Assembly: GCA_963774715.1 (NCBI GenBank)
Contig: CAVZFX010000003.1
Location: 81,824 to 145,823 of the forward strand
Origin: an uncultured Alphaproteobacteria bacterium
Lineage (GTDB): Bacteria; Pseudomonadota; Alphaproteobacteria; Rhizobiales; Xanthobacteraceae
Direction: 5' to 3'
DNA length: 64,000 nt
The position numbers and the translations under genes were made by a program. Positions 24,252-27,525 of this stretch are shown piece after piece. Under the pieces are notes generated by a model that worked only from the letters and a program-made list of their open reading frames with translations, made no database searches and had not been told where the DNA came from. Every line of letters starts with the position of its first letter. Position 1 is the first letter of the stretch.

Positions 24252-24371
24252 TTACATGTCGACGTTCGCCGTGAGCGCATGCGCCTCGATGAAGTCGCGG
24301 CTCGGCTCGGCCTTGTCGCCCACCAGCTCGTCGCAGATAGTGTTGGTCTAGTCGGTCTCCTTCACGCTGAC
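24252..24371 (-). pseudogene. Decayed duplicate of the last 40 codons of gyrB, with an in-frame TAG
   Basis: Hand alignment to 25087-25206 gives 97/120 identical nt with no gaps. It translates as VSVKETD*TNTICDELVGDKAEPSRDFIEAHALTANVDM*, versus [39 protein letters not shown] in the real gyrB. Confidence 0.8.
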
Positions 24372-24374
24372 GCA

Positions 24375-24515
24375 CTACTCTTTCATCTTCCTCAATTTCA
24401 TCTTATTCTTAGAGTGTTCCGTTCTTTCACGCTCTCGCAGCAGTTCTTCCATCTTCTTGCGGTAGTCCGCAGGCGGTTGCGCCTTCTTGCTCTTCGTCGC
24501 GGGTCGCTTTGCCAT
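24375..24515 (-). CDS. Small 46-aa Lys/Arg/Glu-rich ORF (MAKRPATKSKKAQPPADYRKKMEELLRERERTEHSKNKMKLRKMKE), below the ORF-track cutoff
   Basis: ATG 24515 is preceded by GGGAGGGG 5-6 nt upstream. That RBS starts right after the TAG stop of the upstream 155-aa gene, an operon-like arrangement. Confidence 0.45.
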   Translation of the reverse strand: MAKRPATKSKKAQPPADYRKKMEELLRERERTEHSKNKMKLRKMKE

Positions 24516-24526
24516 TGTGCCCCTCC

Positions 24527-24994
24527 CTAAATGGTCTTGAGTAAGATATAAACGGCGTGCAGGAAAAGTCCGGCAAAAATCAAGTATCCGGCCCAGATTA
24601 AATGCAACGCCTTGCGATCGTTGACCTTGGAATTGTGCGTGTATGCGACCGCATAGTCGGCGAGGCGAGCGTCGAAGAAATCATCGTCCTGCTGCGGGGC
24701 CTTGCCTAGATGGTGAATAAGCTCCTTCGGATCGCTGGGCACTTGGTATTGAGATATTTGAATCGACCAGAGCGACAGCAAAAATGCGGCCAGCATAGAA
24801 ACAATCATCGTCACAAAGACGAGCTTAAACGTAAGCGTATCTGGCTTTAGGTTCTGCGCCACAAACAAAATAAATGCCGAATAAAAGGTGACCAGTGAAA
24901 GATAATATTTCGCGCGGTCCTGCAACGAGGTCTGGCGCGCGTTCTCTTCATCATAAATGGACTTGAAGTACGAAAATTGTTGCTGCGTCGCCAT
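24527..24994 (-). CDS. 155-aa predicted three-TM membrane protein, no family recognised, in an AT-rich insert
   Basis: GAGGGG RBS. Hydrophobic segments are YYLSLVTFYSAFILFVAQNL, FKLVFVTMIVSMLAAFLLSLWSI and LHLIWAGYLIFAGLFLHAVYILL. Three 60-nt lines counted by hand are 42-45% GC. Confidence 0.7.
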   Translation of the reverse strand: MATQQQFSYFKSIYDEENARQTSLQDRAKYYLSLVTFYSAFILFVAQNLKPDTLTFKLVFVTMIVSMLAAFLLSLWSIQISQYQVPSDPKELIHHLGKAPQQDDDFFDARLADYAVAYTHNSKVNDRKALHLIWAGYLIFAGLFLHAVYILLKTI

Positions 24995-25022
24995 GACGAC
25001 CCCTCGAAGCCATCATGACATC

Positions 25023-25052
25023 ATTTTATGCACCGTTTGGATGCAGACTCAA
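25023..25052 (-). promoter_or_regulatory. Sigma70-like promoter candidate TTGAGT-18nt-TAAAAT for the two-gene cassette
   Basis: Read on the minus strand. The -10 lies about 29 nt upstream of ATG 24994. Pattern match only. Confidence 0.3.
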
Positions 25053-25086
25053 GATAGATCGCTCAGGCAAGGCCAATCCCTCAAGC

Positions 25087-27525
25087 TCACACATCCACGC
25101 TCGCCGCCAGCGCGTGCTCCTCGATGAAGATGCGGCGCGGCTCGACTTTGTCGCCCATCAGCTCGTCGAAGATCGTATTGGCCTCGTCGATCTCCTTGAC
25201 GCTGACCTGCAGCATGGTGCGGGCGTTGGTGTCGAGCGTGGTTTCCCAAAGCTGGGAGGGGTTCATCTCGCCCAGGCCTTTGTAGCGCTGGAGCGCCACG
25301 CCCTTTCGTCCGGCGGCGGTCACCGCCTCGAACAGGCTGACCGGGCCATGGATGGAAATTTCTTCGTCCTTGCGTTTGAGCATCGCCGGCGGCGTCGGCC
25401 GCGGAAACACCTTCTGCAGCTCGGGCGCGAACTCGTCGAGCCTGCGCGCATCGGCCGAGCCGAGCAGCGCCTGGTCGAGCGCGGCCACTTCCTTGACGCC
25501 GCGTACCATGCGCTCGAACAGAAAGCCCTCGCCTTCGGCAAAACGGCCTTGCCAGCCGCGCTCGGTCTCCTCGGACAGCGCGTCGAGCCGCTTGGCGATA
25601 TAGGGCACCGCGGCAACAGCTTTCTGCGGATCGCCGAAGATGTCGCGGTTGAGCACGCTCATGATCGCGGCCTGTTCGACGACCTGGCGATTATACCGGC
25701 TGTGCAAGCCGCGGAGCAGATTGCGGATTTGGCGGGAATCCTCGACCAGTTTGCGCAAATCGTTGCCGGCCAGCACCTCGCCGGACGACAGCCGCAACGT
25801 GGTCTCTTCGAGGCCGGTATCGATCAGATAATCCTCAAGCGCCCGCTCGTCCTTGAGATACTGCTCCGACTTGCCGCGTGCGATCTTATAGAGCGGCGGC
25901 TGGGCGATATAGAGATAGCCGCGGTCGATGAGCTCGCGCATCTGCCGGTAGAAGAAAGTCAGCAGCAGCGTGCGGATATGGGCGCCGTCGACGTCGGCGT
26001 CGGTCATGATGATGATCTTGTGATAGCGCAGCTTGTCGATGGCGAATTCATCGGTGCCGATGCCGGTGCCGAGCGCGGTGATCAAGGTGCCGATCTGCTC
26101 GGAGGACAGCATCTTGTCCATGCGCGCGCGTTCGACGTTGAGGATCTTGCCGCGCAGCGGCAGGACGGCCTGGAATTCGCGGTTGCGGCCCTGCTTGGCG
26201 GAGCCGCCGGCGCTGTCGCCCTCGACGATGAACAGTTCGGACTTGGCTGGATCCTTTTCCTGGCAGTCGGCGAGCTTGCCGGGCAGCGAGGTGATGCCGA
26301 GCGCGCTTTTGCGCGTCATTTCGCGCGCCTTGCGCGCCGCCTCGCGCGCCGCCGCCGCCTGGATCACCTTGCCGACGACGATCTTGGCCTCGGACGGATG
26401 CTCCTCAAGCCAGGACTTGAGCATGTCATTGATCACGCCCTCGACCACCGGACGGACCTCGGACGACACCAGTTTGTCCTTGGTCTGCGACGAAAATTTT
26501 GGATCGGGCACTTTGACCGAGAGCACCGCGGTCAAGCCCTCGCGGCAATCGTCGCCGGTGAGCGCGACCTTTTCCTTGCGGGCGACGCCGCTCGATTCGG
26601 CATAGCCGGTGATTTGGCGCGTCAGCGCGCCGCGAAAACCGGCCAGATGGGTGCCGCCGTCGCGTTGCGGAATGTTGTTGGTGAAGCAGAGCACGGTCTC
26701 GTGGTAGCCGTCATTCCACCACAGCGCGCATTCGACCACCATATTGTCGCGTTCGGCCTTGATGAGGATCGGCTGCGGTACCAGCGCCGTCTTGTTGCGG
26801 TCGAGATATTTGACGAACTCCTCGACGCCGCCCTCGTAGCGCAGCACCTCGCGCTTCTCGACGGCGTGGCGCATGTCGGACAGCACGATGGTGACGCCGG
26901 AATTGAGGAAGGCGAGTTCGCGCAGCCGGTGTTCCAGCGTGGCGAAATCGAACTCCGTCATAGTGAAGGTCTTTGTTGACGGCAGGAACGTCACTTCGGT
27001 GCCGCGCTTGTCGCGCGCGGCACCGACCACGGCGAGCGGGGCGACTGCGTCACCGTCGCGAAATTCCATGGCGTGCTCCTGGCCGTCGCGCCAGATGGTC
27101 AGCTTGAGCCAGCTTGACAGCGCATTGACCACCGAGACGCCGACGCCGTGCAGGCCGCCGGAGACCTTGTAGGAGTTCTGGTCGAATTTCCCGCCGGCGT
27201 GGAGCTGGGTCATGATGACCTCGGCGGCGGACACGCCTTCGCCCTTATGGATATCGGTCGGAATGCCGCGGCCGTCGTCGCGGACGGTGCAGGAACCGTC
27301 GGGATTGAGCCGCACCACGACTTCCTTGGCGTAGCCGGCAAGCGCCTCGTCGATCGCGTTGTCGACAACCTCATAGACCATGTGATGCAGGCCCGAGCCG
27401 TCATCGGTATCGCCGATATACATGCCCGGCCGTTTGCGCACGGCGTCGAGCCCCTTGAGCACCTTGATCGATTCCGCATCGTAATCGGAAGGTACGGGGG
27501 GCGGTTTACGGACGGGTTCGGCCAT
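25087..27525 (-). CDS. gyrB: DNA gyrase subunit B
   Basis: [32 protein letters not shown] and QPPLYK motifs. Start at ATG 27525 (MAEPVRK...). Confidence 0.97.

Follow-up and report, generated by a model that had tools for sequence, protein, structure and literature searches.

A decayed second copy of the gyrB 3' end brackets a low-GC cassette at a recurrent insertion hotspot in Xanthobacteraceae

Integrase-free defence hotspots between conserved core genes probably exchange their content when their flanks recombine. A precedent for DNA that is inserted with a long and variable duplication of its target and without mobility genes is the class known as insertion with long target duplication (Nobusato et al. 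2000; Furuta, Abe & Kobayashi 2010, PMC2853133). Homology-facilitated illegitimate recombination (HFIR) and displacement at conserved upstream genes are represented by the C-terminal displacement at rhs, CDI and T6SS effector loci (PMC2935791; PMC5361080). Here we compare with these systems a locus at the 3' end of gyrB. The window, a stretch of 64,000 nucleotides from an uncultured alphaproteobacterium of the Xanthobacteraceae, carries the following features at this locus:

23396-24142, plus strand: convergent 248-aa host gene, function unknown, the far border of the hotspot (ORF list)
24143-24251, no strand: spacer with REP-type hairpins (inverted repeat 24154-24174 / 24223-24243)
24252-24371, minus strand: copy B, the displaced pseudogene copy of the last 40 gyrB codons (repeat search, blastn, nhmmer)
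24375-24515, minus strand: cargo gene 2, encoding a 46-aa lysine/arginine-rich protein (ORF list, alignment)
24527-24994, minus strand: cargo gene 1, encoding a 155-aa membrane protein (ORF list, domain and family searches)
24995-25086, minus strand: cassette leader (junction sequences, promoter scan)
25087-25206, minus strand: copy A, the functional last 40 gyrB codons including the TGA stop at 25087-25089 (repeat search)
25087-27582, minus strand: gyrB, DNA gyrase subunit B, longest ORF from a GTG at 27582 (ORF list)

The gyrB start common with relatives is the ATG at 27525, which gives a protein of 812 amino acids, 99% identical to the GyrB of related loci L004 and L008; the Pfam gyrase domains were found on the L090 protein, which is identical to the GyrB of the window. 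The repeat search delimits an ungapped direct repeat of 121 nt (24251-24371 versus 25086-25206) with 82% identity. A first-pass annotation of this DNA had already placed the two copies at these coordinates and aligned them without gaps, but its hand count of 97 identical nucleotides in 120 gives way to 98 in a per-site count, with 22 differences. It had also allowed that the similarity might prove insignificant; copy B is in fact similar to gyrB well above chance, with E = 3e-28 in blastn and E = 3.5e-28 against an nhmmer profile of 37 gyrB 3' ends. The similarity opens abruptly at GTCAGCG (codons VSVKE) in both copies, the same codon as first reported, and closes one nucleotide beyond the stop codon. 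With an in-frame TAG at 24348-24350 and a terminal TAA (24252-24254) in place of TGA, copy B is indeed a pseudogene fragment, and it begins 3 nt past the stop of the 46-aa cargo gene. No other repeat of the gyrB-tail kind exists in the 64-kb window, where the sole other long repeat consists of tandem paralogues at 50.8-52.8 kb.

Copy B adjoins the native REP spacer, which separates it from the stop of the convergent downstream gene. The REP hairpins described just outside the distal copy are borne out by the inverted repeat (90% complementary). Since L023 and L024 have this REP type in the equivalent place, behind the downstream gene, the repeat belongs to the host and not to the insert, and the flank is 90-96% identical to L004 as far as the insert edge.

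The 715 bp that separate the copies (24372-25086) have a GC content of 49.4% against a window mean of 63.3% (sd 2.8, z = -5.0) and are the lowest-GC 715-nt stretch of the whole window, so that the cargo is compositionally foreign. The insert had been called AT-richer than its flanks, which holds, although the 42-45% GC counted by hand is true of single lines only. It contains two co-oriented ORFs of 155 and 46 amino acids and, as had been noted, no integrase or other recombinase: a domain of this kind was found in neither ORF. The 155-aa gene has 48% GC and 63% GC3, versus 64% and 85% for gyrB, and is preceded by a sigma-70-like hexamer pair at 25052-25023 (the promoter scan is weak, with one site versus 0.6 expected). 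The first bases past the gyrB stop, GCTTGAGGG, are common to the window and L081.

The 155-aa protein has three long helices and belongs to a large uncharacterised family, its similarity to 8xMP and PycTM-type membrane proteins being sub-threshold. The gene for its partner, the 46-aa protein with the motif DY.KKMEE.L..R, directly follows each examined homologue, and the two-gene module is widespread (about 600 clusters at 50% identity). We considered and rejected identity with a Pycsar PycTM effector, as the protein does not reach the gathering threshold of the Pfam model and no pyrimidine cyclase is adjacent. PycTM (PF18967) was found neither in the window protein at E up to 1 nor in two sets of family members, one of 17 searched at E up to 0.1 and one of 57 at E up to 0.01; some homologues carry precomputed PycTM hits labelled 'weak' or 'faint'. 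No cyclase gene stands beside the 155-aa homologues in the contexts examined, the neighbours in the window being gyrB and the 46-aa gene. A Thoeris-like TIR system with a membrane effector was likewise rejected, as the operon of the window has no TIR-domain gene; among the loci, only L083 has one (TIR_2, E = 1e-22). Searches of the cargo returned no matches on plasmids or phages and no restriction or modification domains. With low confidence, we infer that the cassette is most likely a membrane-acting defence or addiction module; an uncharacterised but widespread two-gene module that sits among toxin-antitoxin and TIR genes is in any case a candidate for such a system.

The 248-aa host gene served as the query that fetched the 80 related loci. 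Empty sites are seen in L004, L007, L013 and L072, where there is one gyrB end and the downstream gene lies 17-18 nt away from it, which answers the earlier call for a synteny comparison and speaks against the alternative, raised with it, that all relatives carry the same intergenic sequence with host-like composition. In the closest relatives, whose gyrB is 87-95% identical in nucleotides to that of the window, the site is empty or filled with unrelated cargo. Across about 65 relatives the distance from the gyrB stop to the next host gene ranges from 17 nt to 5.8 kb. The gap holds, in different relatives, an ICMT gene, GlnA-like and Rieske genes, a luciferase-like oxidoreductase gene, a gene for an 819-aa DUF4062/TPR protein, T5orf172 with a Phd antitoxin, or DUF559, and other low-GC inserts occur in L008 and L048. 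Across about 90 related loci the gap proves variable, and soil Xanthobacteraceae of this clade have in it a recurrent hotspot of insertion.

The cassette itself was found in none of the 80 species-level relatives and is present in distant lineages; in L081/L082, L088 and L105 it lies immediately behind gyrB, and in L083 behind a TIR gene. The earlier proposal to look for the insert downstream of gyrB or next to integrases thus has a divided answer: it recurs behind gyrB, but integrase neighbours are absent at the scarred loci. L081 shares with the window the junction at the gyrB stop and a homologous leader, and the alignment of the two is unbroken from gyrB through the cassette; a second, distal gyrB copy was found in neither L081, L088 nor L105. 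Between window and L081 the dS of the 155-aa gene (0.43) is lower than that of gyrB (0.64), and the cassette is low-GC in every host, both of which are signs of horizontal movement.

The cassette is an acquisition, given the empty sites in the closest relatives, the foreign composition and a gyrB fragment in L089 that is still joined to the native neighbour of gyrB. An old local duplication, inherited vertically with a host-like history, is extremely improbable. Such a history would agree with an island that is fixed, being present in each of nine contigs from the species of the window, and with the 11 private changes in the 120 nt of copy B, a level of decay that dates it roughly to the divergence from the nearest relatives (gyrB dS 0.22-0.23), yet it is at odds with the empty sites of those relatives, with an insert that is the compositional extreme of the window, with a cassette missing from all 80 species-level relatives and found in distant lineages, and with the lower dS of the cargo. 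The empty sites and the patchy distribution largely refute it.

Second gyrB ends are not confined to the window. Four further displaced 3' fragments, each ending at the gyrB stop, were found in the related loci:

L083: 50 nt fragment, behind a TIR gene and the same cassette as in the window
L089: 82 nt fragment, behind a Phd-PIN toxin-antitoxin pair
L057: 27 nt fragment, behind a luciferase-like oxidoreductase gene
L034: 67 nt fragment, cargo of at least 2.9 kb

In the other four of the five scarred loci the cargo measures 0.7-2.2 kb. The last ~25 nt of gyrB are common to all five displaced fragments, and the 5' edge is different in each (27, 50, 67, 82 and 120 nt). These boundaries may have been trimmed by later deletion, since three of the five fragments begin within 10 nt of the stop of the last cargo gene, which weakens the argument from variable boundaries against a fixed site. 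The fragment of L089 and the spacer and luciferase-like gene behind it line up collinearly with the end of gyrB itself, followed by spacer and luciferase-like gene, in L059, L060, L050, L055, L076 and L077; the L089 fragment is therefore the old resident gyrB end. Displacement would leave the old 3' end joined to its former neighbour, which is the arrangement seen in L089 and, with the native REP spacer and downstream gene next to the fragment, in the window. The two copies in L083 carry the allele GAGCACAAC, which is unique among 72 gyrB ends and fits a resident duplication or a conspecific donor as well as displacement.

The order of target 3' end, cargo and displaced 3' end that was first described therefore holds. 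It had been read as the footprint of site-specific integration of the kind seen in tRNA- or guaA-targeting islands. In the version that corresponds to the second origin first offered, a cassette mobilised in trans, this reading makes the insert a cis-mobilizable, CIME-like remnant with att sites overlapping the gyrB end and a tyrosine or serine recombinase encoded elsewhere. Integrase-less elements with flanking att sites are known, the foreign cargo does lie between direct repeats where a conserved gene ends, with empty sites elsewhere, and the ~25 nt common to all five fragments could hold a core. We nevertheless consider it unlikely. No integrase or transposase was found in or beside the five scarred loci, and across the hotspot gaps examined (about 65), which were surveyed by ORF clustering and by Pfam scans of selected representatives from some of the 25 clusters, mobility-related ORFs were limited to an IS5-family fragment in L067. 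The repeat differs in length in every case, the cargo has no plasmid or phage match, and the longest identical run between copies A and B is about 11 nt, although the copies are old (18% diverged) and any att core could have decayed. There is no sign of the other origin first offered, a larger element stripped down to a remnant.

Site-specific integration would also have the element supply a replacement 3' end, and it had been suggested to ask which copy groups with the gyrB of the host clade. Of the 22 differences between the copies, 11 are private to copy B and reflect decay, and 11 fall at sites that vary among real gyrB genes. At these 11 informative sites copy A matches the closest relatives 6-10 times and copy B matches L008, L004, L006 and L003 only 1-4 times, with L053, another close relative, matching copy B at 8. 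Copy A differs from the closest relatives no more than the rest of gyrB does, there is no identity break at position 25206, and the distance to L008, L004 and L006 stays level over the length of the gene, so that no donor-derived tract is seen in the gyrB of the window. L053 alone diverges more over the last ~600 nt, and a donor from the same clade would escape this detection. The functional gyrB end thus looks native rather than element-supplied, contrary to the earlier reading, and the absence of a donor tract means that HFIR would need a same-clade donor or a later overwrite of the allele.

A native gyrB end with no donor tract is also what a pure target duplication would leave, in which foreign DNA is captured at a staggered or resected double-strand break at the gyrB end, followed by fill-in, both copies being resident; insertion with long target duplication was originally understood in this way. 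The allele shared by the L083 copies agrees with this, and the class is documented with duplications of 30-400 bp, some overlapping the 3' ends of genes (PMC2853133). We judge it decidedly unlikely for the window, where half of the A/B differences (11 of 22) are alternative natural alleles and not random decay, which also means that copy B did not arise recently from copy A as it now stands. For the common junction and leader in window and L081, moreover, a joint transfer of cassette and gyrB end is a simpler account than independent captures, twice, at one and the same nucleotide.

In our best explanation, to which we give about an even chance of being right, the locus is a recombinase-less hotspot in which a cassette linked to a gyrB end was joined through gyrB as an anchor and the old end was displaced. 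The incoming DNA would have carried the cassette together with a gyrB 3' end; on one side gyrB, being highly conserved, would act as a homologous anchor, and on the other an illegitimate joint would form within the resident gyrB, 120 nt short of its stop. The outcome would be an intact gyrB, the cassette and the old gyrB end, which, no longer needed, would decay to a pseudogene. From these patterns we infer both the recombination pathway and the direction of transfer. Comparison with L081 suggests only 3-5 nt of junction microhomology (TGC / CGTC) at 24372-24376, which is not diagnostic in a joint this old.

The same structure is exactly what a Campbell-type event would yield, in which a circle of gyrB 3' fragment and cargo, formed by recombination between repeats in an earlier host, integrates by a single RecA crossover in the gyrB end of the recipient; the repeat would then let the cassette propagate itself with no recombinase. 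A cycle of this sort has been hypothesised for restriction-modification units with long flanking repeats (PMC2853133), and an element-borne fragment would be expected to differ from most close relatives at the informative sites, as copy B does. A crossover within the repeat would however make both copies chimeric, yet copy A is host-like and copy B is not over their whole lengths. Repeats of 27-120 nt at 82-92% identity are poor RecA substrates, L081, L088 and L105 have the cassette without a second copy, and the L083 fragment bears the unique allele of its own host, all of which leaves this route very improbable. That the duplicated gyrB end makes the cassette mobile, with fragment and cargo looping out between the copies and re-entering any related genome at the nearly invariant gyrB end, is quite improbable as well. 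If true, it would amount to a recombinase-free cassette with the terminus of an essential gene as universal landing pad, and defence-type genes would have, within a few kb of the replication origin, a shuttle site common to the whole family.

Under the preferred reading of anchoring and displacement, the locus would be a repeated natural example of how small accessory or defence-type cassettes enter a genome without a recombinase of their own, the conserved end of an essential gene serving as anchor and a datable pseudogene scar remaining. Duplicated core-gene 3' ends are searchable and could yield a map of recombinase-free hotspots with insertion ages. Partial gyrB pseudo-copies can also mislead gyrB-based typing or primer design.

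In comparison with described systems, the 155-aa protein resembles the Pycsar PycTM, SLATT and Thoeris ThsF/ThsH effectors (bioRxiv 10.64898/2025.12.03.692087) as a small protein with 2-3 membrane helices; its L083 homologue follows a TIR-domain gene, and several homologues have weak PycTM hits. Unlike these signalling-defence effectors, it reaches no family threshold, stands in the window with neither a cyclase nor a TIR gene as neighbour, and has as its constant partner a small basic protein instead of a signal-producing enzyme.

With genomic islands, IMEs and CIMEs that tyrosine recombinases place at the 3' ends of tRNA, tmRNA, guaA, fda and similar genes, the locus shares the order of target 3' end, cargo and second 3' end, an intact gene and empty sites. 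It differs from tyrosine-recombinase islands in having no integrase at the scarred loci (nor was one seen in the remaining gaps that were examined), no crossover at a fixed position, cargo of 0.7-2.2 kb in four of five cases and a functional gene end that looks native. Like integrase-free defence hotspots, it is a variable gap with conserved borders that holds TIR, toxin-antitoxin, T5orf172 or DUF4062/TPR genes or is empty; here, however, only one flank (gyrB) is well conserved, and gene-end scars are left where plain double-crossover replacement would leave none.

The class with long target duplication (PMC2853133) has inserts below 20 kb without mobility genes (715 bp here), flanking direct repeats above 30 bp of variable length (120 nt here), a single repeat at the empty site of a related genome (L004, L007, L013, L072 here) and atypical GC in the insert, and some published repeats overlap the 3' end of a neighbouring gene. 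The published cases carry restriction-modification cargo, which was a screen criterion, in contrast to the membrane and small basic proteins here and the toxin-antitoxin, TIR and oxidoreductase genes elsewhere in the hotspot. Also unlike that class, the repeat consists entirely of essential-gene coding sequence, different lineages have been struck repeatedly at this one gene end, and the copies in the window are old and diverged (82%).

As in displacement at rhs, CDI and T6SS loci, a conserved upstream sequence would act as recombination anchor, incoming DNA would carry a new 3' part with cargo, and the old 3' part would survive further downstream as an orphan fragment; one event can pile up on another, as in L089, and there is no integrase. 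There the displaced 3' ends are variable toxin domains and the point of the exchange, whereas here the anchor is an invariant housekeeping gene and it is the separate genes behind it that vary. Phenomena of this kind are already known, and a gyrB-end scar with these cargoes is a new variation on them, not a classical integrase-driven island.

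The first-pass annotation had claimed a second copy of the gyrB 3' end downstream of the gene, and this duplication proved real. A repeat search aligned 24251-24371 with 25086-25206 as an ungapped direct repeat of 121 nt at 82% identity (blastn E = 3e-28; nhmmer E = 3.5e-28), the sole repeat of gyrB-end type within the 64 kb window. The per-site count, 98 of 120 sites identical between the copies, came close to the 97 of 120 counted earlier by hand. gyrB itself belongs to the origin-proximal cluster ordered dnaA, dnaN, recF, gyrB:

30544-31971, minus strand, dnaA, in the origin-proximal gene cluster
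25087-27582, minus strand, gyrB, in the same cluster

As had been described, similarity between the proximal copy (the functional last 40 codons of gyrB) and the distal copy sets in abruptly, at GTCAGCG (codons VSVKE); it ends one base past the stop codon. The distal copy has an in-frame TAG at 24348-24350 and stops with TAA, versus TGA in gyrB, which bears out its description as a pseudogene fragment. REP-type hairpins are indeed present just outside it, in the spacer before the convergent 248-aa gene; since two related loci (L023 and L024) have the identical REP type at the equivalent position, the hairpins are a property of the host. Between recF and gyrB, a 61-aa ORF (27750-27935, minus strand) has no match in Pfam; a gene of 61-65 aa is called in the same place in L081, L083 and L090. 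The ORF could be a small conserved gene.

The 715-bp segment separating the copies has a GC content of 49.4%, the window as a whole averaging 63.3% (z = -5); no other 715-nt stretch is lower, in line with the AT-richness originally seen by eye. It is filled by two co-oriented ORFs:

24527-24994, co-oriented with the 46-aa ORF, 155-aa ORF
24375-24515, co-oriented with the 155-aa ORF, 46-aa ORF

The second-lowest-GC stretch of the window (32026-33341) contains few ORFs and lies between dnaA and a 95-aa ORF (32939-33226), which we take to be a putative rpsT. This stretch is probably the chromosomal replication origin, in which case the gyrB site lies about 6-7 kb from oriC. A third low-GC patch (11401-12166) holds a minus-strand gene for a 170-aa helix-turn-helix (HTH_3) regulator. 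Separately, 50821-52840 is a tandem gene duplication with no relation to the gyrB finding, consisting of two paralogous segments (repeat families D1-D4 and D6) that recur with a period of 1077 nt and share 75-77% identity across about 1 kb.

For the 155-aa protein, three long helices were predicted (AlphaFold model, pLDDT 80). A PDB fold search with this model gave no match with E up to 0.001, a PDB sequence profile search gave none either, and no match reached threshold in Pfam, PADLOC or PHROGs. Sub-threshold matches to the Pfam family 8xMP, a name for which a literature search returned no useful paper, were seen in 10 of 57 relatives, and some homologues have precomputed 'weak' or 'faint' matches to PycTM. 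With 606 clusters at 50% identity, its family is a large one. Wherever its context was examined, even in relatives of just 33% identity, the membrane-protein gene is directly followed by a small lysine/arginine-rich ORF, which among the closer homologues keeps the motif DY.KKMEE.L..R; this constancy marks the pair as a self-contained two-gene module. Searches of plasmids and phages gave no match to it. Distant homologues in L100, L102, L112 and L113 (33-47% identical, one of them from a low-GC organism) are each directly followed by such an ORF of 57-145 aa; the pairing is far older, and more widely distributed, than its association with gyrB. An Rfam scan of 24000-25400 yielded only a sub-threshold chance match, and a sequence scan showed no terminator separating the cassette from gyrB. 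A weak promoter-like site of the cassette lies at 25023-25052.

In L083, a TIR_2 protein (E = 1e-22) is encoded directly upstream of the module, an arrangement reminiscent of described TIR systems with membrane effectors (bioRxiv 10.64898/2025.12.03.692087); the window differs from these in having no TIR gene. The L083 segment 4821-6626, comprising a 339-aa TIR_2 protein, the 155-aa homologue and the small basic partner, all between gyrB and a 50-nt displaced fragment, is a candidate for a TIR system of three genes, membrane effector included. With low confidence, we suggest that the cassette of the window might be a membrane-acting defence or addiction module.

With the 248-aa downstream gene as query, we retrieved 80 species-level loci from Xanthobacteraceae metagenome-assembled genomes, none of which encodes the cassette. 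The gap between the stop codons of the 248-aa gene and gyrB ranges from 17 nt to 5.8 kb across relatives, the nearest of which by gyrB are L008, L053, L004 and L006 (94-95% nucleotide identity). The empty sites predicted for close relatives were found in L004, L007, L013 and L072, where the gap is 17-18 nt. On the downstream side the sequence keeps 90-96% identity to L004 as far as the insert, on the gyrB side divergence stays level along the gene, and no recombination breakpoint was found in gyrB or the downstream flank; both flanks are native up to the insert. All nine contigs encoding an identical 155-aa protein come from the same species (at least 98.8% identical) and carry the same island. 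Metagenomes containing this species include ERZ25039458 and ERZ25039473, besides Logan runs. Farther downstream, about 200 nt (20942-21142) does not align with L004, L008 or L006 (26-28% pairwise identity) and matches L003 at 94%; this is a small indel polymorphism upstream of a PfkB-family gene.

The contents of the gap were surveyed by ORF clustering and by Pfam scans of selected representatives of the 25 clusters. Occupants include an ICMT-family gene (L006 and L003), GlnA-like and Rieske genes, a luciferase-like oxidoreductase, a T5orf172/MUG113 protein with a Phd-type antitoxin (L048, 6763-7899), an 819-aa DUF4062, DUF7779 and TPR protein with a weak AAA_22 match (L046, 4241-6697; a relative occurs in L039) and a DUF559 endonuclease-like protein (L070). 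In its behaviour the gap resembles a small defence island. L008 carries, at precisely this site, a different insert of 1235 nt (5359-6593, 48% GC) that encodes an unrelated 139-aa membrane protein with a sub-threshold Pfam match only, and no gyrB fragment was detectable in it.

A profile search of all loci found extra gyrB 3' fragments in exactly five places, and no more decayed fragments beyond these.

Table. Displaced gyrB 3' fragments and the cargo in front of them.
Locus; fragment; cargo
Window; 120 nt; two-gene cassette
L089; 82 nt; Phd-PIN pair
L034; 67 nt; at least 2.9 kb, with a multicopper-oxidase-like ORF recognised by inspecting the sequence
L083; 50 nt; TIR gene and the same cassette
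L057; 27 nt; luciferase-like gene

Each of the five fragments runs to the gyrB stop codon, and no two share a 5' edge. Those of the window, L089 and L057 begin 0-10 nt past the stop of the last cargo gene, so the fragments may have been trimmed by later deletion. The clearest evidence for displacement comes from L089. Its fragment is collinear with the genuine gyrB end of six other loci (L059, L060, L050, L055, L076 and L077), and so are the spacer and luciferase-like gene that come after it; the Phd-PIN pair and a working gyrB end lie upstream. By this collinearity, the L089 fragment is the old resident gyrB end, still joined to its former neighbour.

Integrase and transposase searches of the insert, the four other scarred loci and, through the ORF clustering and the Pfam scans of selected representatives, about 65 hotspot gaps found only one IS5-family fragment, in L067. 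The lack of recombinase genes, the differing boundaries and the native-looking functional end together argue against the integrase-type site-specific island originally proposed. A recombinase acting in trans on a core within the last ~25 nt of gyrB, a stretch that all five fragments include, is an unlikely explanation.

The cassette does recur downstream of gyrB, as the earlier search proposal had envisaged, although the integrases sought beside it are missing from the insert and the scarred loci. Homologous cassettes directly follow gyrB in L081/L082 (85% amino acid identity), L088 (59%) and L105 (66%); the L083 homologue (63%) follows the TIR gene, those of L086, L087 and L089 lie elsewhere within the same variable region, and that of L084/L085 is at an unrelated site. 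The alignment of the window with L081 is unbroken: from inside gyrB it crosses the stop codon and a leader common to both (GCTTGAGGG...) and continues as far as the small gene's stop. The two hosts are distant (gyrB nucleotide identity 84%, dS 0.64), and dS of the 155-aa gene is 0.43. Cassette GC is low in every host (47-55%), with GC3 of 61-76% versus 84-89% for gyrB. These data fit an event in which the cassette, joined to a gyrB end, was transferred into a site that had been empty.

We lean, at about even confidence, toward gyrB-anchored displacement, in which the cassette would arrive joined to a gyrB end and the old end would be pushed downstream; the cassette and its gyrB junction, both shared with a distant lineage, and the L089 synteny favour it. 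Insertion of a circle by a Campbell-type event is very unlikely: no second gyrB copy lies behind the cassette in L081, L082 or L088.

The 22 differences between the copies are spread evenly over codon positions (7, 7 and 8). Half of them, including the nonsense codon, are states present in at most 3% of 72 real gyrB ends and are read as decay; the other 11 fall at sites polymorphic among real gyrB genes. At these informative sites the proximal copy matches L008, L004, L006, L003 and L012 at 6-10 positions and the distal copy at 1-4, the latter matching L053, a close relative, at 8 and L022, L030 and L050 at 9. As to which copy groups with the host gyrB, the proximal one goes with the closest relatives; its reading as the host-type end is suggestive only, since a distal-like allele occurs in L053 and 120 nt are not enough to build a tree on. 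The matches indicate that the distal copy did not arise recently from the present functional end and that this end is not visibly foreign. In L083 both copies derive from one lineage, as they share GAGCACAAC, unique among the 72 gyrB ends; this speaks for pure target duplication, which overall is quite unlikely. Possibly the recipient carried an L053-type and the donor an L008-type allele; later replacement of the functional allele is the alternative, and 120 nt are too few to decide between the two. Private decay of the distal copy amounts to 0.09 per site, close to the synonymous distance per lineage that separates it from L004 and L008 (dS 0.22-0.23), making the insertion roughly as old as this species.

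The L053 gyrB (10208-12648) is 94.75% identical to that of the window overall, with divergence two- to three-fold higher over the last ~600 nt, where its allele at the informative sites resembles the displaced copy; the assembly has frameshift-like gaps. This may mark a recombination tract at the gyrB 3' end, in L053 or in the window lineage.

A literature search found no paper describing gyrB as an integration target, consistent with the initial impression that it is not a common one; the nearest case is the PabI restriction-modification pair downstream of gyrB in Helicobacter (PMC4615327). Apart from its cargo type, the structure has the published hallmarks of an 'insertion with long target duplication' (PMC2853133). 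It also fits the displacement pattern at rhs, CDI and T6SS loci, which is explained by homology-facilitated illegitimate recombination (PMC5361080; PMC2935791). The phenomenon is of known kinds, namely long target duplication, 3'-end displacement and integrase-free hotspots. What is new is that the end of an essential housekeeping gene is used, and that it is struck time and again, in different lineages and with varied cargo; the two-gene module, itself uncharacterised, is new as well.
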